Shown here: in pieces, positions 32,472 through 50,365 of the stretch | Layout: every line of letters begins with the position of its first letter | Numbering within the stretch: the stretch's first letter is position 1 | Assembly: GCA_964517485.1 (NCBI GenBank) | Contig: CAZFCZ010000027.1 | Location: 1 to 63,031 of the forward strand | Direction of reading: 5' to 3' | From: an uncultured Nitratifractor sp. | GTDB lineage: Bacteria; Campylobacterota; Campylobacteria; Campylobacterales; Sulfurovaceae | Length of the DNA: 63,031 nucleotides | Made by a program: the position numbers and the translations under genes | The notes under the pieces: generated by a model | Told to the model about the DNA's origin: nothing | Databases searched by the model: none | The model's input: only the letters and a program-made list of their open reading frames with translations

Positions 32472-32889
32472 AGAGATATTCTTAACAAACACAGATACTA
32501 CTATAGGTTTTATATCTAAGTCTAAAGAGGCTTTAGATATTGCCAAAAGTAGAGCATCTAACAAAGAGTACATTACTGCAATTTCTTCATTTAAAGCACT
32601 AAACAGAAGAGTTCCTAAAGAGTTTAAAAATATCGTTAGACGCTCTAAGAAGACTACATTTATACTAAATTCTAAATTCTCTTTTAGAGTAGCTAAAAAT
32701 AGAAGACACCTACTATTAATTAATAGGCTAAATAGTGCATATACAACCTCTGCAAATAAGAGTAATTTGGCATTTAACTACGATTTTGCACTAGATAAAG
32801 CAAATGTAGTTATCTACCCATTAGATAAGCTAAAAAGTGCTTCTAAAATATATAAACTGGGTAAAACTAGAATTAAAAGGATAAGATAG
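32464..32889 (+). CDS. short YrdC/Sua5-like domain protein
   Basis: 141 aa, overlapping the carB stop by 8 nt. The N-terminal [10 protein letters not shown] resembles the PTDTVYGL motif of the YrdC fold. Very basic and shorter than canonical YrdC. Confidence 0.5.
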
Positions 32890-33263
32890 TGCAAGATATA
32901 TTTTGGAAAAATGAGAATTTTTTTATACAAAAGCACATTAGCAATTTACCATGGATTAAACTTTTTACTAATACTAAATATAAAGAGATTACCGAACTAC
33001 CATACGATTTAAAGATGCAAATGTATGCTCTTTTAGAGATTATAGAAAAAACTATGATAGAGTTTTACAATCCAAAAAAAATTAATATTGCATCATTTGG
33101 TAATATGCTACCACATCTTCATTGGCATATAATAGCAAGATTTAAAGACGATCCATATTTCCCTAAAACCACTTGGGAAGAGCCAATTAGAGAGTTTACA
33201 CTTAATCTGCCAGAGTTTGAAGATTTTACTAAAATACTAAATAAAAATCTAAAAGAGATTTAA
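32889..33263 (+). CDS. HIT family nucleotide hydrolase/transferase
   Basis: 124 aa with a GTG start overlapping the upstream stop. Histidine triad HLHWHII. Confidence 0.8.
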   Translation: MQDIFWKNENFFIQKHISNLPWIKLFTNTKYKEITELPYDLKMQMYALLEIIEKTMIEFYNPKKINIASFGNMLPHLHWHIIARFKDDPYFPKTTWEEPIREFTLNLPEFEDFTKILNKNLKEI

Positions 33264-42795: not shown

Positions 42796-43314
42796 ATGAA
42801 CACAAGTATTGTAGGAAAAAGCATAGAGCTTACAGAGCCTATAAAAAATTACGCAGAGTCAGCTTTTGAAGCAATAAAGAAATATAATCTAGACATTATA
42901 TCTGCAAATATAGTACTCTCAGAGAGTAAAAAAGGGCACTTTAGCGTTGAATTTGTAATTAATGTAAAAGATAAGCATACAGTTGTTATAACTCAAAAAG
43001 ATAAAGATCTATATGCAGCTATAGATTTAGCTTCAGATAGAGCAAAGAAAAACTTAAGAAGATATGCCGATAAAATTAAAGACCATAGTAATGGTGGTAT
43101 TAAAGAGCTAGATAATGGCGAGCCAGAGCCAGTAGCAGAGCAAGACGAAGAAGATATTTTATCTTTAGAGCCAAAGCTATATAAGCCTTTAGATTTCGAA
43201 GAGGCTAAAATGATGCTAGATGAGTCAGATGATAACTTCTTTGTATTTTACGATATAGACTCTAATATGCGTGTACTAACCAAGTTAAACAACGGAAAGT
43301 ACGGACTATATTAA
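42796..43314 (+). CDS. hpf: ribosome hibernation promoting factor (long HPF)
   Basis: 172 aa. S30AE/YfiA N-domain, acidic linker and a C-terminal dimerisation domain (FFVFYDIDSNMRVLTK). Confidence 0.85.
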   Translation: MNTSIVGKSIELTEPIKNYAESAFEAIKKYNLDIISANIVLSESKKGHFSVEFVINVKDKHTVVITQKDKDLYAAIDLASDRAKKNLRRYADKIKDHSNGGIKELDNGEPEPVAEQDEEDILSLEPKLYKPLDFEEAKMMLDESDDNFFVFYDIDSNMRVLTKLNNGKYGLY

Positions 43315-43319
43315 AAATT

Positions 43320-43338
43320 AGAGGCTCTAGAAGCCTCT
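43320..43338. terminator. bidirectional hairpin between the convergent hpf and FTR-rhodanese genes
   Basis: AGAGGCT-ctaga-AGCCTCT fills the 28 nt convergent gap, with A/T-rich flanks on both sides. Confidence 0.5.
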
Positions 43339-43342
43339 TTAA

Positions 43343-44080
43343 TTAACCTTTAACTACTTCACCCATATAGCTAATAATTCCATAAGTAAAGTTACCAACA
43401 CTCATTCCTTCTCTTCTTAATATCTGTTGTACTTGATAACTGCGACTGCCAGTATGGCAATATAGTATTATATTTTCATCTTTTCTTTTTAGTAGTTTTG
43501 GTAGCCATTCATAAAATTTAGTAGTTGGTAGTAGCTCGTTTGTTCCTTTAATATTCCCCATTTTAAACTCCATAGGTTCTCTTACATCTATTAAAGAGAA
43601 CTCTAACATACCAATCTCTCTAGCCTCTAGCAAAGCTTCTATTTCGTCACCATCTAGTTGCTCTTTTTTTAGTAAAAGTACTGCTTCTTCTTGGCTTAAG
43701 CCTCTAGAGTGTGTATGTGCTTCTTCTTGTGCACTCTTTTGTATCTCTTTCTCTTTTGCGTACTCTGGCGTACAAAAAATTCCACAATGGCATACCCCAT
43801 TATCTGGTATCTCTGTCTCTAATGCAGGCTTGCAAGGGCATATTCTGTTATCTGCCTCTTTTCTTTCTTGCTTGGTTTCACCTTTAACAATAAAACATGG
43901 GCAGTATCGCTTACCATAGATTAATCTATTTCTGGCTAACCCCATTGCAACACCTTCATTTATCTCTTCATCTGGATTTTGTGTTAAACCAAATTGATTA
44001 TTAACTTTATCAATAAACTTCCATGTTTTTTCAATTTCTACCTGAAACTCATCTGAGTTTATATCTATATTATTATTCAT
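43343..44080 (-). CDS. fusion protein: ferredoxin-thioredoxin reductase catalytic-subunit-like domain + rhodanese domain
   Basis: 245 aa. CPC(60-62)-18 aa-CPC(81-83)-13 aa-CHC(97-99) as in FTR catalytic chains. The C-terminal rhodanese has active-site loop CHTGSRS (Cys208). Confidence 0.75.
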   Translation of the reverse strand: MNNNIDINSDEFQVEIEKTWKFIDKVNNQFGLTQNPDEEINEGVAMGLARNRLIYGKRYCPCFIVKGETKQERKEADNRICPCKPALETEIPDNGVCHCGIFCTPEYAKEKEIQKSAQEEAHTHSRGLSQEEAVLLLKKEQLDGDEIEALLEAREIGMLEFSLIDVREPMEFKMGNIKGTNELLPTTKFYEWLPKLLKRKDENIILYCHTGSRSYQVQQILRREGMSVGNFTYGIISYMGEVVKG

Positions 44081-44176
44081 TATTATATACCCTTATCAAA
44101 ACATATTATTAAATAATAGAATTTTATCAAAAATTACTTAATTATATACTCAAATATAAAGTTATTGTATTTATAA

Positions 44177-44197
44177 ACCTACCAAAAAAAGGTAGGT
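44177..44197 (-). terminator. candidate intrinsic terminator after the thioredoxin gene
   Basis: The minus strand reads ACCTACC-ttttttt-GGTAGGT followed by TTATAAAT, 17 nt after the stop. Confidence 0.55.
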
Positions 44198-44214
44198 ATA
44201 TGCAGTCTATGTAG

Positions 44215-44583
44215 TTACTTAGCAGATTGTTGTTTCTCTATCTCTTTCTTTACCTCGTTCATATCTAGTGCTTGTACCTGAGAGATAATATCTTTTAAAC
44301 CCTCTTCTGGCAGTAAACCTGCTTGCTGAAATAGAACAATATTTTCTCTAAGAACCATTACTGTAGGAATAGATTGTATCTGAAAGTGCCCAGCAAGTGC
44401 TTGTTGCTCTTGGGTATTTATTTTACCAAATAAGATATCTGGATACTCTTGAGATACCTTTTCGAAAATTGGAGTAAACTGTTTACATGGTCCACACCAT
44501 GGTGCCCAAAAATCTAGTATTGCAATGTCGTTTGCTTCTATACTTTGGTTAAAGTTCTCTTGTGTTAAGTTTTTTAATGCCAT
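44215..44583 (-). CDS. thioredoxin
   Basis: 122 aa. Canonical WAPWCGPCK active site and cis-Pro SIPT, with a short helical C-terminal extension. Confidence 0.9.
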   Translation of the reverse strand: MALKNLTQENFNQSIEANDIAILDFWAPWCGPCKQFTPIFEKVSQEYPDILFGKINTQEQQALAGHFQIQSIPTVMVLRENIVLFQQAGLLPEEGLKDIISQVQALDMNEVKKEIEKQQSAK

Positions 44584-44825
44584 ATATTAATCCTTTTTGC
44601 TTTTACGGTGTTAAATTTTATAGCTACCATTATGGCATATAGAGTTTAAAATATCTTTAAAATAAAAATTGTTTATTCTTTTGTAGGTAAATAAGCAAAT
44701 TGTTTTATTATAAAGGGATAATAATTATTTATATGGAGTATTTTACAACGGAGAAAAACTCCGTTTAAGTGTTAAACTTTTAATATATTAGTTTTTGGAC
44801 TAACCTAGTCCCTTAATTAAAAGCC

Positions 44826-45320
44826 TCAACCGCCAGAATAGCAGTTAGCTAAGCCACCAACAACACCTGTCGAGATCTCGTCGCTTGTAGCATCTCTTAA
44901 AGAGGCAATCTCTACATTAAACTTTAAATCTTTGCCAGCTAATGGGTGGTTATAGTCAATTGTTACCTCTTTATCGTTAAACGATTTAACTGTAACTTGC
45001 ATCTGTCCACCATCTGGAGACTGCCCATAAAGTGTTAAACCCTCTTTTAGCTCAATTCCTTCGAATTGCTCTCTTGGCACTTGCTGTAGTGCATCAGGGT
45101 CTACTTCGCCATATGCTTCTTTAGCTACTACTGTAAGTTCTGCAGAGTCGCCCTCTTGCATACCTACTAATTGCTTCTCTAAACCTGGGATTAACTGTCC
45201 CATACCAGTAATAAACTCTAGTGGAGAGCCACTTTTATTACTATCTATAATATCTGTCGAGTTAACTTCTGTTAAATCATAAATTAACCCAACAACACTA
45301 TATTGCTCTTTTATGCTCAT
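44826..45320 (-). CDS. slyD: FKBP-type peptidyl-prolyl isomerase SlyD (no long His-rich tail)
   Basis: 164 aa. FKBP core with an insert-in-flap region (DPDALQQVPREQFEG...). C-terminus is ...GGLANCYSGG. Confidence 0.82.
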   Translation of the reverse strand: MSIKEQYSVVGLIYDLTEVNSTDIIDSNKSGSPLEFITGMGQLIPGLEKQLVGMQEGDSAELTVVAKEAYGEVDPDALQQVPREQFEGIELKEGLTLYGQSPDGGQMQVTVKSFNDKEVTIDYNHPLAGKDLKFNVEIASLRDATSDEISTGVVGGLANCYSGG

Positions 45321-45410
45321 TTGTTTCCTTTCAAAAATGTAATGATATTTTATCGAAGTTAATTAGATATTTTCTTAAAAATTGCTAAATGTAAGTAATA
45401 AATAAAACTA

Positions 45411-45432
45411 TACTCCCAAGAGTTTGGGAGTA
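45411..45432 (-). terminator. intrinsic terminator after the sdh/frd operon
   Basis: TACTCCCAA-(4 nt loop)-TTGGGAGTA, followed on the minus strand by TAGTTTTATTTATT. It starts 8 nt after the stop of the CCG-domain subunit. Confidence 0.6.
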
Positions 45433-45440
45433 TATAAAAA

Positions 45441-46322
45441 TTAAGCTAGCTCGGTAGCTTTAGTAACATTGTACTTTAAGCCTATCTCTTCTTTGCTACA
45501 ACCAAGTGCTAGTGCAATCATTTGTGGTAAGTGTAAAACAGGAAGCTCTATATCGCGTCCTAACTGTTTACCAGCACTATCTTGCTTTAAGTCCATATTT
45601 AATTGACATAGTGGGCATGGTGTTACCATTAAGTCTGCATTGTTGTCTATTGCATCTAGTAGGGCAGTTCCGCTTAGTGCGTTACTTGTCTCTGGAGCTT
45701 GTAAGTCAACATGGAAACCACAACACTTGTTTTTACTTTCGTAATCTACGCTGTTACCCTCTAGCGCTGCAATTAAGTCATCTAAAGATGTAGGAACATA
45801 TGGGTTTTCTCCACCGTTAACTTCGTGGTGTAGCTCGCTAGGGCGAATGTTATGACAACCATAAAATGGTGCAATATTAAAGTGGCTTAGTGGTACTTCT
45901 ACTTTAGCCGCAATATTCTCTAGCCCATAGTCTTCTATAAGTGCATACTGAAAGTGTCTTACACGGCTAGTGCCTTTATACTCTAATCCAACCTCTGCAA
46001 GTTTTTCGTTAACTCTTGCTTTAAGCTCTGGGTCGCTATCTAGGCGCTCTTTTGTCATAGCCGAGTTTAGCTGGCAAGTATTACAAATTGTAATCATATC
46101 AAGACCAAGCTTCTCTGCATAGCAGATATTTCTAGCATTTAAAACCAAAGATAAAAAATCATCAAAATCTTGTAGATGGCTAGCACCACAGCAGCTAGCT
46201 TCGTCTAGTAGTATTAACTCAATACCTAGTTTCTTAGCAACTGCCATTGTAGAAGAAAGAAGCTCAGGTGTCGATTCTCTTGCTGTACATCCAGTGTAAA
46301 GTGCGTATTTCAAGTTACTCAT
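45441..46322 (-). CDS. type-E succinate dehydrogenase/fumarate reductase subunit with two CCG cysteine-rich domains (SdhE/MfrE, HdrB-like)
   Basis: 293 aa with no TM helix. CCG at residues 44-46 and 200-202, each followed by CxxC (CNTCQ, CPLCQ). Confidence 0.85.
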   Translation of the reverse strand: MSNLKYALYTGCTARESTPELLSSTMAVAKKLGIELILLDEASCCGASHLQDFDDFLSLVLNARNICYAEKLGLDMITICNTCQLNSAMTKERLDSDPELKARVNEKLAEVGLEYKGTSRVRHFQYALIEDYGLENIAAKVEVPLSHFNIAPFYGCHNIRPSELHHEVNGGENPYVPTSLDDLIAALEGNSVDYESKNKCCGFHVDLQAPETSNALSGTALLDAIDNNADLMVTPCPLCQLNMDLKQDSAGKQLGRDIELPVLHLPQMIALALGCSKEEIGLKYNVTKATELA

Positions 46323-46332
46323 ATTGCTTCCT

Positions 46333-47319
46333 TTATTTTAATTCGTTAGTTTGAGATATTTCGATAAGTTTTTGAATCTCATCTAAATTTTTACTTCTTG
46401 GCATCTTTTTCTTCATAACATCAAATGGGTGTACTTTACCAGCTTTTATCATTTTAAATGCTTCGCTTAAGTGCTTAACAACACCTAAACCTTCTGAGTA
46501 TAGTACAATATCTTGCTCGTCAAGGTAACCAAACTTCTTAATAGAGCGTATAAAGCCCTCTGCGTGCTTAGTTGCAACATTTCTTTTTGCTACACCTTGC
46601 TCAAATTGCATATTATGAAGTTTTGCAATCTTCTCTATTGGGTTAACATCTTTAGGGCAAGCCTCTGCACACTCGTAACACTTAACACAATCCCAAACAC
46701 CAGGTCCCATTTTAGAAGTAGCTTCTAGTCTCTCTTTTGCTGCTTCGTCTCTTGGGTCTGCACTAAATCTATAAGCTGCCGCAAATGCTGCTGGTCCAAA
46801 GTAGTCTTCGTTAACCTCTACAACTGGGCAAGCATAGTGGCAACTACCACACTGAATACAGTAGTCAGCATCTAGTAAGTTCTCTACTTGCTCTTGGCTC
46901 ATAGTGCTCTCAGACTCTGGATTAGGATCTACTTTAGTCTCTACATACGGCTTAATAGCTGCGTGTTTCTCCCAAAAGTCGCCTTTGTCAATTATCATAT
47001 CTTTTACGGCTCTTTTTTTGCTTTGTGGCTCAAATACAAGCTCTTCGCCAAATAGCTCTACAAGCTCCAATGCATTTTGCTTACAAGCTAGAGTTGCCTT
47101 GCCGTTTACCTTTATACCACAAGCACCGCAAATTCCGTGACGGCAGCTTCTTCTGTAGCTAAACGAACCATCGTGTTCCCACTTTAGTCTATTTAGAAGG
47201 TCTAAGATAAGCTCATCTTTTCCTACTTCCATAGTATATTTTTTGTAGTAAGGTAAGTAGTCTGTCTCTGCGTTAAATCTAAACGCTTTTATAGTAATTT
47301 CTCTTTTATCACTCATCAT
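46333..47319 (-). CDS. sdhB: succinate dehydrogenase/fumarate reductase iron-sulfur subunit
   Basis: 328 aa. 2Fe-2S CRHGICGACG, cluster motifs CIQCGSCHYACP and CVKCYECAEACP, plus a C-terminal extension of about 80 aa. Confidence 0.9.
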   Translation of the reverse strand: MMSDKREITIKAFRFNAETDYLPYYKKYTMEVGKDELILDLLNRLKWEHDGSFSYRRSCRHGICGACGIKVNGKATLACKQNALELVELFGEELVFEPQSKKRAVKDMIIDKGDFWEKHAAIKPYVETKVDPNPESESTMSQEQVENLLDADYCIQCGSCHYACPVVEVNEDYFGPAAFAAAYRFSADPRDEAAKERLEATSKMGPGVWDCVKCYECAEACPKDVNPIEKIAKLHNMQFEQGVAKRNVATKHAEGFIRSIKKFGYLDEQDIVLYSEGLGVVKHLSEAFKMIKAGKVHPFDVMKKKMPRSKNLDEIQKLIEISQTNELK

Positions 47320-47324
47320 AGCTC

Positions 47325-49046
47325 CTAGTATTTTCTTTCAGTAGGTTCAAACTTACCAAGTACAACTTCGCCATAGCTTAGTTCTAACTCGTAATCACCG
47401 CTAAATTTAGCATATGTGTGCTTTAAGAAGTTTTCGTCATCTCTTGTTGGGAAATCTTCTCTATAGTGTGCACCACGGCTCTCTTCTCTTGCTAGTGCGC
47501 CCTCTACAATAAATATAGAGAAGTCAATCATATGTCCTAGCTCGATTGCCTCTTGTAAGTCTGTGTTAAATGTTTTAGATTTATCATCGATTCTAATATT
47601 TTTATATCTGTCGTAAATCTCTTTTAATTTAGCTTTTTGTTTAGTTAAAGACTCTTTTGTTCTAAATACACCAGCGTCCATTGTCATAGACTCTTGTAGT
47701 TCAACTCTTAGGGCAGGAACTCTTTCGTTACCGTTGTTTGTTAAAGTCCAATTAACCTGGTCTATCATTCTTTGTGCATCTTCTTTAGTTGCTGGTAGTA
47801 GCTCTATTTTATCTATATCTTCTACCATTGACTCTCCAGATACTCTACCAAAGAATAGTGCCTCTAGTACCGAGTTTGCTCCAAGGCGGTTTGCACCATG
47901 TACACTTACACAACTACACTCTCCAGCAGCATAAAGCCCCTCTACAAACTCTGTTGGCGACTTTCTAACTTGTGTTCTTTTATCAACTGGTATACCACCC
48001 ATAGAGTAGTGTGCAGTTGCTGCAATCATAATTGGCTCTTTTAGCATATCTTGCCCTAAGAAAGTAATTGCTAAATCACGAAGTTCTGGTAGTTTAGTTA
48101 AAATTGTCTCTTTAGGTAGGTGAGTTAAATCTATATATACAGCATCTTTATTTGGGCCAACACCTCTACCTTGACGAATCTCTTCCATAATAGCACGGCT
48201 AACAACATCACGACTTGCAAGCTCCATAGCATTTGGAGCATACTTTTCCATAAAACGCTCGCCTTCGCTATTAAATAGTCTTCCGCCTTCTCCACGAGCT
48301 GCTTCTGATATTAATACACCACTTCCGCCAAGCCCACTTGGATGAAACTGAACAAACTCCATATCCTCAAGTGGTAACCCACGACGAGCAAAAATAGATA
48401 GTGCATCACCAGTATTTGCATGTGCGTTAGAGTTAATTTTATATGCTCTACCGTAACCACCTGTTGCAAACATTGTTACTTTAGCGTTAAAAATTGCTGG
48501 CTCGCTTGTTCTAATATTGTATGCTGCAATACCTTTTGCTTTGCCATCTTCGTATAGTACATCTGCACAGTACCACTCATCAAATACCTCTATACCAGCA
48601 CGAAATGCTTGTTCGTAAATTGTTTGAAGCAGTGTTAAACCAGTTCTATCTGATGCATAACACGCTCTTGGCTTGCTTTGTCCACCAAATGGTCTAATAG
48701 CAATTTTACCCTTTTCGTCACGGCTAAATACCGCACCCATTCTCTCTGCCCATCTAATTGTCTCAGGCGCTTTAGAACACATAAACTCAATAGCATCTTG
48801 GTCGCCTAAGTAGTCGCTACCCTTTACTGTATCGAACTCGTGTAGTTCTGTAGAATCATCTTCGCCTAAAGCCGCATTTATACCACCTTGTGCCGCACCA
48901 GAGTGGCTTCTAAGTGGATGTAGCTTTGTAATTACTGCTACTCTTTTACCTGCTTCGCTTAACTCTTTTGCTGCGGCAAGTCCTGCAAGACCAGCACCAA
49001 CAACAACTGCGTCGTATTCGTATATTTTAACATCGCTTAGCTGCAT
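47325..49046 (-). CDS. sdhA: succinate dehydrogenase/fumarate reductase flavoprotein subunit
   Basis: 573 aa. VVGAGLAGL at the extreme N-terminus (no twin-arginine leader), FAD-His region [25 protein letters not shown]. Confidence 0.95.
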
Positions 49047-49150: not shown

Positions 49151-50365
49151 TTACATTAAATAGTCAAAATTTTCTTCGCTTAGTATAGAAGCAAATTCTA
49201 CTATCTTAATAGTGCTACCATTTGTTATATTTTCGCATGTTTCGTTAAAGAGTGCAATAGCATTAGACTCTACTAATGGTGTTACCATTCCCGAGCCATA
49301 TTTATTGTTTTTATATGGGCTAAATGTGCCATTTTTGTAAGTTCCTAGTACAATATTTACTCTATTTGGCTTTAACTTTAGCGTTGTAGAAATTTTTGCC
49401 TCTTTAGTAGAGAAGAAAATATCTTTTGCCCCTTGGCTTTTTAATATTATAGGTAAACCTAAAATTATAATATGCATAATTGCAGCAAGCGGATTACCAG
49501 GCATTGCCATAACAAATGTAGTGCCAATTTTACCCATCAAAGTAGGGTGCCCGGGCTTAACTTTTATACCATGAAAAATCTCTTTAAAACCATTTTGCAA
49601 TAGCGCCTCTTTTGTAAAGTCGGCATCGCCAACACTAACACCACCTGTAGTAATAATAATATTATAGTTGTCTAATTTTCTAAAAAACTCTATAGATTCC
49701 TCTAGATTATCTGGCAATACACCCAAATACTCAGACTTTATAGAGTGTGCTAAAAGGTGCGATTTAATATTAATACCGTTTATATTATATAGCTCATCGC
49801 TTGTTGCATCTTCGCCTGGCTCTTTAAGCTCGCTACCAGTTGCAATTATAGCAATTTTTAACTCTTTAAAACACTCTACCTCTACAATGCCTTGCGATGC
49901 AAGCAGAGCAATTTTAGAAGCACTTAGTCTATCGCCACTTTTAACTATAAGGCTACTCTTTTGCAACTCTTCTCCCATTAGCCTAATTGCACTACCTTTT
50001 TTAATAGGCTTTAGCACCTTTACACTACCATTAGATACTTCGCATATCTCTATTGGAGCAATTGTATCGCAATCGTTTGGAACTTTTGCTCCTGTCATAA
50101 TTTTATAGCACTCGTTTTGCTTTAGGTTAGGCTCTACAATATCGCCTGCTAAAATCTTAGCTATAATCTTTAGAGGGCTATTAATATCGCTATATTTAAA
50201 TGCAAAGCCGTCCATTGCTGAGTTGTTGTATGGGGGTAGGGCTCGTAGTGCATATATATCTTTAGATACAACTCTATTTAGTGCATCTTCTATATTTACT
50301 AACTCTGTATCTTTAATTTGCTCTACATTTTCTAGCGCTAACTCTAAGGCTTTTGCGTACTTCAT
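49151..50365 (-). CDS. moeA: molybdopterin molybdenumtransferase MoeA
   Basis: 404 aa. Motifs PPYNNSAMDGFA and TTGGVSVGDADF. Confidence 0.9.
   Translation of the reverse strand: MKYAKALELALENVEQIKDTELVNIEDALNRVVSKDIYALRALPPYNNSAMDGFAFKYSDINSPLKIIAKILAGDIVEPNLKQNECYKIMTGAKVPNDCDTIAPIEICEVSNGSVKVLKPIKKGSAIRLMGEELQKSSLIVKSGDRLSASKIALLASQGIVEVECFKELKIAIIATGSELKEPGEDATSDELYNINGINIKSHLLAHSIKSEYLGVLPDNLEESIEFFRKLDNYNIIITTGGVSVGDADFTKEALLQNGFKEIFHGIKVKPGHPTLMGKIGTTFVMAMPGNPLAAIMHIIILGLPIILKSQGAKDIFFSTKEAKISTTLKLKPNRVNIVLGTYKNGTFSPYKNNKYGSGMVTPLVESNAIALFNETCENITNGSTIKIVEFASILSEENFDYLM

Follow-up and report, generated by a model that had tools for sequence, protein, structure and literature searches.

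Two groups of described enzymes come closest to the gene that is the subject of this work. The first uses the catalytic module of ferredoxin-thioredoxin reductase (FTR; the module is FTRc), either with a variable subunit, as in plants and cyanobacteria, or joined to a second redox-active domain, as in the FDR with rubredoxin of Methanosarcina acetivorans (4tpu) and the glutaredoxin/FDR protein of Desulfotalea psychrophila (7pwe). The second group places a disulfide-reductase module upstream of a catalytic rhodanese (RHD) domain, and includes Npsr (3nta), CoAPR (8a56), CoADR-RHD (3icr) and the A. fulgidus persulfide reductase (6pfz). Npsr and CoAPR, the solved reductase-rhodanese examples, are persulfide reductases according to the titles of their PDB entries. 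Here, we describe a gene that fuses an FTR-type module to a rhodanese. It lies on the minus strand at positions 43343–44080 of a 63,031-nucleotide stretch of DNA from an uncultured Nitratifractor sp., the whole of which we call the window. The product has 245 residues; the ATG is at 44078–44080, and AAGGG, 9–13 nt upstream, is a plausible ribosome-binding site. The fusion is not a new category: it combines FDR-type partner fusions with rhodanese-linked persulfide reductases. It is quite possibly, though with slightly less than even confidence on our part, a cytoplasmic ferredoxin-dependent reductase of sulfane sulfur (persulfide, polysulfide or thiosulfate-derived).

The FTR-type domain occupies residues 16–121 (43718–44035, minus strand), a placement based on Pfam, on alignments to 7bzk, 4tpu and 7pwe, and on residue invariance. 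The match to FeThRed_B (PF02943) has an E value of 3.6e-35 and 120.6 bits against a cut-off of 22, and covers 103 of 106 profile positions. A first-pass annotation of this DNA had listed three Cys motifs in a 245-residue product, CPC at 60–62, CPC at 81–83 and CHC at 97–99, with spacers of 18 and 13 residues, and this layout is confirmed on the open reading frame. It had also given CPC-x16-CPC-x8-CHC as the canonical plant/cyanobacterial pattern. That is indeed the pattern of Arabidopsis FTRc (7bzk), on which the three motifs of the fusion fall in the HMMER alignment; they also align with the motifs of Methanosarcina FDR (4tpu) and of the Desulfotalea glutaredoxin/FDR fusion (7pwe). Going by the homologous Synechocystis FTR, we take C60, C81, C83 and C97 to be putative [4Fe-4S] ligands, and C62 and C99, with H98 between them, to be the putative redox-active pair. 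An unrelated Cys-rich Zn domain had been named as the finding that would overturn the assignment. The Pfam score, together with alignments and fold matches to FTRc and FDR, points the other way: the N-domain is, to judge from its sequence, a genuine FTR/FDR-type module.

The rhodanese domain spans residues 149–234 (43379–43636, minus strand; PF00581, E value 8.6e-12, 45.8 bits against a cut-off of 22.2). Its loop, Y207-C208-H-T-G-S-R-S214, with the Cys208 codon at 43457–43459, has the six-residue form C-x4-R-[ST], which we take to be that of sulfurtransferases and not that of the Cdc25/Acr2 type; a Cdc25/arsenate-reductase identity is ruled out by loop length. The earlier reading of this loop as catalytic agrees with the Pfam match and with the invariance of the loop residues, and the domain is predicted to be of the catalytic type. 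NCBIfam has no equivalog for the fusion. The models that score highest there, FtrB double-selenoprotein and the rhodanese parts of MoeZ/MoeB, all fall far short of their cut-offs.

Conservation was assessed in 66 fusion homologues that are 54–100% identical to the window protein. C60, C62, C81, C83, C97, H98, C99 and C208 are 100% conserved, and G211, S212, R213 and S214 of the rhodanese loop are invariant along with C208. The clarity of both domains and the invariance of their catalytic residues favor sulfane-sulfur reduction. Two further features set the family apart. An additional Cys103 (CHCGIFC; codon 43772–43774), four residues past the CHC, is conserved in 97% of the homologues. The junction between the domains carries the motif H122-T-H124-S-R-G-L128 (43697–43717, minus strand), in which H124, G127 and L128 are invariant and H122, S125 and R126 are conserved in at least 90% of the homologues. 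Plant FTRc and archaeal FDR have neither Cys103 nor the junction motif, and the motif is specific to the fusion, being missing from stand-alone FTRc and stand-alone rhodanese genes. The region had been described as an acidic linker. This description does not hold, since most of the linker is predicted as helix with high confidence by AlphaFold (residues 105–122, 130–137 and 144–155), and it includes the conserved motif, at which pLDDT falls to 68.

How does the fusion compare with known systems? With plant and cyanobacterial FTR it shares the Pfam family, the three Cys pairs and the His of the CHC motif, and it matches FTRc structures in fold over ~92 residues (TM 0.62–0.65, depending on the target). 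It differs from these enzymes in its spacers (x18 and x13, compared with x16 and x8), in the additional Cys103 and the C-terminal rhodanese, and in having no variable subunit; furthermore, its host is non-photosynthetic. By sequence, the PDB entries that the N-domain matches best are 4tpu and 7pwe (E values 2.7e-9 and 1.2e-7). Like the fusion, they are FTR-type modules without a variable subunit that are joined to a second redox-active domain, and this likeness favors the reaction proposed here. In contrast to their CYC, the fusion has CHC, with His98 as in true FTRs, which counts in the same direction. Moreover, the domain joined to them carries electrons or dithiols, whereas that of the fusion carries sulfur.

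The flavin persulfide reductases resemble the fusion in its other half. The rhodanese matches the RHD domains of 3icr, 3ict, 3nta, 8a56 and 6pfz, both by sequence (E values 4e-4 and 1e-3) and by fold, and these matches add to the case for persulfide as a substrate. The reductase module is different: FAD/NAD(P)H pyridine-nucleotide disulfide oxidoreductase with bound CoA in those enzymes, and an Fe-S/disulfide module with ferredoxin as the presumed donor here. A Pfam scan found no Pyr_redox family in the fusion, and only the rhodanese part aligns, over ~104–109 columns of chains of ~555 residues. Hence, as far as sequence comparison goes, the fusion is analogous, and not homologous, to Npsr, CoAPR and CoADR-RHD as a whole. 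Foldseek matched the two halves separately, the N-half to FTRc and FDR structures and the C-half to single-domain rhodaneses and to the RHD domains of CoADR-RHD, Npsr, CoAPR and a persulfide dioxygenase fusion. Neither this search nor the PDB sequence matches yielded a solved chain with both halves. A structure search of the Atlas showed that thioredoxin-rhodanese fusions are widespread in other phyla; thus, a rhodanese paired with a dithiol/disulfide redox module is a design that recurs.

Repeated linkage between FTR-type modules and this rhodanese subfamily, in fusions and in neighboring genes, also speaks for sulfane-sulfur reduction. In two genomes of the same family (G388 and G269), the order is gatC/FTRc, a 120–121-residue rhodanese, and dapE, with the two modules encoded by separate adjacent genes. 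These are unfused forms of the two modules of the fusion, differing from it in being separate polypeptides without HxHSRGL, and they are equally uncharacterized. Both modules were matched side by side at the dapE/gatC locus in two more genomes (G289 and G291), where the open reading frame listing does not resolve two genes. Within the same genus as the window, one genome (G274) has the fusion followed by a 117-residue rhodanese, and another (G121) has a DsbD-like open reading frame followed directly by a 120-residue stand-alone rhodanese. FTRc, the fusion and a further rhodanese occur together in G007. A 114-residue stand-alone FTRc gene lies directly upstream of the fusion at loci L026, L028 and L035, and similar open reading frames of 117–120 residues precede it at L015 and L016. 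The stand-alone rhodaneses are 37–55% identical to the C-half of the fusion, and those beside FTRc, fusion or DsbD genes carry an N-terminal helical extension like that at residues ~130–155 of the fusion. NCBIfam also includes a rhodanese/DsbD fusion family (TsoB).

The fusion family is compact and annotated in databases, and its architecture is already catalogued in public collections. A word-indexed search returned ~1400 homologues of the same length, and both Pfam domains are present in all of the best 120, which were the ones checked. Their source names are [quoted passage not shown], “sulfurtransferase” or “Rubredoxin”. An exhaustive search with 50% clustering gave about five full-length fusion clusters and two partial ones, the named clusters coming from Sulfurospirillum and Sulfurovum; the family occurs in cultivated genera, with Sulfurospirillum, Sulfurimonas and Sulfurovum as named sources. 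The first-pass annotation had called for a domain search and a taxonomic survey. We surveyed 401 Campylobacterota genomes, 125 of them outside families f2 and f3, which exact look-up of their TrxB proteins identified as Helicobacteraceae and Campylobacteraceae. Full-length uninterrupted matches, counted by hand, number ~101 among the 125 genomes, and none of the ~101 is inside those two families. In the sampled Helicobacteraceae and Campylobacteraceae the fusion was not found, the matches being weak and uninspected (best E values about 1e-6 to 1e-9) apart from an FTRc-only match in one Helicobacteraceae genome. The sole sign of the family beyond Campylobacterota, and an unverified one, is an Atlas cluster with both domains that is labelled “commonest Bacteroidota”. 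Presence in the free-living families sampled and absence from the sampled Helicobacteraceae and Campylobacteraceae again favor a sulfane-sulfur reductase. Fusion carriers are exposed to sulfur, and Helicobacteraceae and Campylobacteraceae also use ferredoxin or flavodoxin; hence, the distribution would track sulfur exposure better than ferredoxin use.

The assembly that contains the window (G000; 1.46 Mb in 88 contigs, 88.8% complete, reported contamination 1.67%) has three FeThRed_B genes: the window fusion, a second fusion on contig C53 and a stand-alone FTRc on contig C47. The latter, of 114 residues, lies between gatC and dapE (L003, 1507–1851), is 57% identical to the N-half of the fusion and has the same additional Cys in CHCGIFC. 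A stand-alone 116-residue rhodanese on contig C8 (25815–26165) has a CRSGNRS loop, is 37% identical to the C-half of the fusion and has the same N-terminal helix. As the first-pass annotation had said of its own stretch, there is no gene for an FTR variable subunit: PF02941 (FeThRed_A) has no match in the whole 88.8%-complete assembly, and a control in Synechococcus was positive. The suggestion that the organism lacks NADPH-type redox input fails, however, because contig C85 carries a canonical trxA-trxB pair, whose TrxB scores 335 bits on TIGR01292, just below the cut-off of 343. General thioredoxin reduction is thus already covered, by the NADPH TrxR-TrxA pair and the stand-alone FTRc. Together with a ferredoxin-linked 2-oxoacid oxidoreductase, which is also present, these genes count towards a separate, sulfur-directed role for the fusion.

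What, then, might the fusion do? Persulfide reduction is the most plausible reading of its sequence. The observations behind it are the domain identities, the intact catalytic residues, the phyletic spread and the repeated linkage of the two modules; what we infer is that a cluster is bound, which electron donor and substrate are used, and in which direction the reaction runs. In the mechanism we propose, Cys208 of the rhodanese would take up sulfane sulfur as Cys-S-SH. Reduced ferredoxin would give two single electrons to a [4Fe-4S] cluster on C60, C81, C83 and C97, and the cluster would open the adjoining C62-C99 disulfide, with H98 assisting. The freed C62 thiolate could then attack the Cys208 persulfide, upon which sulfide would leave and both modules would be reset. 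The fusion would thus be an iron-sulfur counterpart of the flavin CoA-disulfide-reductase/rhodanese enzymes Npsr, CoAPR and CoADR-RHD. More guardedly, we suggest that its family could be the first non-flavin, ferredoxin-driven persulfide/polysulfide reductase, in which an FTR module reduces sulfur on its own rhodanese. Experimental studies, characterized proteins or solved structures with both domains were not found in literature and structure searches, in line with the first-pass annotation, whose author knew of none. Balsera et al. (Planta, 2013) reportedly surveyed FTRc-like domain fusions and may already list this one.

If the proposal is right, sulfur-exposed free-living Campylobacterota would gain a low-potential means of keeping sulfane sulfur in balance or of supplying sulfide that relies neither on NAD(P)H nor on low-molecular-weight thiols. 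FTR-type Fe-S disulfide chemistry would be extended from protein disulfides to sulfane sulfur, and a ferredoxin-linked branch would be added to the persulfide metabolism of the dominant chemolithoautotrophs of vents and sulfidic habitats. Since the family is small and highly conserved, and cultivated genera carry it, it can be tested directly.

Several observations weigh against sulfane-sulfur reduction. The fusion lies among housekeeping genes (argG and rplI in Sulfurimonas) or genes of thiol redox (dsbD and trx) and not among sulfur-metabolic ones. In most Sulfurimonas-type genomes (genus g15) the fusion is the one match and a stand-alone FTRc did not turn up, so that in these the fusion may have to serve thioredoxin. 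The AlphaFold2 model, built from 45 sequences (pLDDT 91.9, pTM 0.59), is confident for each domain and not for their mutual orientation; a fixed Cys62-Cys208 geometry is therefore not supported by the model. An Atlas model of a cluster with the same architecture superposes on 130 residues only. Finally, the literature yielded no biochemistry on any member of the family.

The g15 genomes lead to the first alternative, namely that the fusion is a ferredoxin:thioredoxin/disulfide reductase whose substrate is a Trx-fold protein (the thioredoxin encoded beside it, TrxA, or the cytoplasmic face of DsbD), and whose rhodanese docks, shields or regulates in place of a variable subunit. The complete FTR catalytic set, including His98, would suit this role, as would the lack of a variable subunit in the genome, the many g15 genomes matched by the fusion only, and the recurrence of Trx-fold neighbors: trx here, and dsbD with a DUF255 gene in the closest orthologues. 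We nonetheless consider it unlikely. A docking or shielding domain needs no invariant catalytic Cys208 and GSRS loop, a stand-alone FTRc and TrxB are already in the genome, and confident packing of the domains was not predicted. In addition, the trx adjacency is unconserved and recent.

This last point needs explanation, since the first-pass annotation had treated the adjacency as a functional clue. The thioredoxin (Trx122; 44215–44583, minus strand) has 122 residues, with WCGPC and a C-terminal tail of ~20 residues, and scores 102.9 bits on TIGR01068 against a cut-off of 96.8; it is a second Trx paralogue of the family. The WCGPC thioredoxin, slyD and the 134-nt gap are as had been described. 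The order is not: on the minus strand it is slyD, trx, fusion, with trx upstream. We searched 67 related loci from named genomes with the window Trx, SlyD, HPF, MurJ and Sdh proteins (tblastn, ±4 kb), and none of the five was found near a relative of the fusion at any of the 67. Conversely, of the 25 other family genomes sampled, 12 have a Trx122 orthologue (53–72% identity); its context varies, and none of the 11 loci inspected has the fusion within 1.5 kb.

The arrangement in the window is nevertheless real. In run X1, a hydrothermal vent metagenome that is probably the source sample of the window DNA, one contig of an independent assembly spans 42894–45735 with 5 differences; hence, the gene order is not an assembly artefact. 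A contig from run X2, of another study, is 98–99% identical (2 differences in 327 letters on the hpf side, 8 in 419 on the trx side) and joins 43313 to 44222, with 88 other letters replacing a 908-bp segment (43314–44221) that holds the fusion gene and both flanking spacers. It follows from this junction that in a very close relative hpf and trx are convergent and the fusion gene is missing. Either the segment was recently inserted or relocated in this genome, or it was recently lost from the X2 relative. A search for direct or inverted repeats at its flanks that could account for it gave only short matches of low identity. In the tree, the window fusion is nested in a dsbD-linked clade (support 98/98). 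The DUF255-dsbD pair of this genome, which is divergent (contig C68, 9384–13208), has no fusion behind it; small unrelated open reading frames follow. We conclude that trx does adjoin the fusion, but that this arrangement is recent and unconserved, an accident of this genome that carries little functional weight. The practical lesson for the window is a negative one: it was the trx neighbor that gave the locus the look of a dedicated system.

The contexts of other family members are informative for the next alternative. Among ~45 Sulfurimonas loci, the common order is flaG, argG, fusion, rplI, hslV, hslU, era. One Sulfurimonas locus (L053, 3249–4723; UBA6014) has tandem duplicate fusion genes, and the duplication is recent, since the copies are sisters in the tree. 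In the closest orthologues (72–84% identity, Nitratifractor-like), the fusion follows dsbD, which is divergent from a DUF255 thioredoxin-like gene (L080, 872–4691), and some dsbD-linked loci carry a stand-alone FTRc between dsbD and the fusion. The Sulfurimonas context of argG, rplI, hslVU and era is of the housekeeping kind, and with the near-universal presence of the family in free-living families it could suit a biosynthetic role, in which the Cys208 persulfide is released as sulfide or passed on for Fe-S clusters, thio-cofactors or tRNA thiolation. In NCBIfam, the rhodanese half is closest to the rhodanese domains of MoeZ/MoeB-type adenylyltransferase-sulfurtransferases, which would agree with this, but these matches are far under the family cut-offs (35.8 bits against 647). 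Furthermore, the contexts examined contain no ThiF/MoeB, ThiS/MoaD, IscS or TusA gene, and the fusion was not found in sampled Helicobacter and Campylobacter genomes, although these organisms need the same cofactors. A biosynthetic role is, in our view, quite unlikely. Least probable of all is a redox-switched sulfurtransferase or sensor, in which the Fe-S/disulfide module would report the ferredoxin/oxygen state and gate the rhodanese by way of a C62-C208 mixed disulfide, without net reductase turnover: the flexible interdomain arrangement of the models, the conserved Cys103 and the HxHSRGL junction motif could fit it, but there is no output domain or regulator-like context, and the fully kept catalytic FTR set fits turnover better.

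In Sulfurovum indicum, two adjacent “rhodanese-like” genes are induced during S0 oxidation (PMC10045233); these could not be linked to the fusion family.

The trx-fusion spacer (44081–44214, minus strand, 134 nt) contains a promoter-like TTGATA-16-TAATAT (44130 to 44103, minus strand) and a weak hairpin at 44173–44201 with 11-nt arms and a 7-nt loop, both being consensus matches only. This hairpin had been taken for the terminator of trx, but it has no proper T-run, and the terminator scan passed over it, calling only a GC-containing hairpin at 43320–43338, between the convergent hpf and fusion genes and terminator-like for the fusion. The hpf gene, for a ribosome hibernation factor, is at 42796–43314 on the plus strand and is followed by murJ. 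The full minus-strand order is moeA, sdhA/frdA, sdhB, a CCG-domain subunit, slyD, trx and the fusion; slyD (44826–45320) encodes an FKBP_C-type peptidyl-prolyl isomerase and is a neighbor outside the system. Positions 45441–49046 encode a succinate dehydrogenase/fumarate reductase flavoprotein, an Fe-S subunit and a subunit with two CCG domains. No membrane anchor gene adjoins these genes, which are type E-like, and moeA lies upstream at 49151–50365.

The second fusion of the genome (L001, 345–1082 of contig C53) is 75% identical to the window fusion and lies on a 2.2-kb contig, where a HIT gene (1082–1447) follows it. The window has its own HIT gene (32889–33263), 67% identical to that on C53. 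This second copy could be a true paralogue, or it could derive from a relative binned together with this genome. Elsewhere in the assembly, contigs C16 (21985–24977) and C7 (33606–36581) carry two syntenic copies of genes for a cold-shock protein (CSD), arginine decarboxylase (speA) and a hexapeptide transferase, each 80–86% identical to the genes of the relative represented by L080, which suggests a segmental duplication or a mixed bin.

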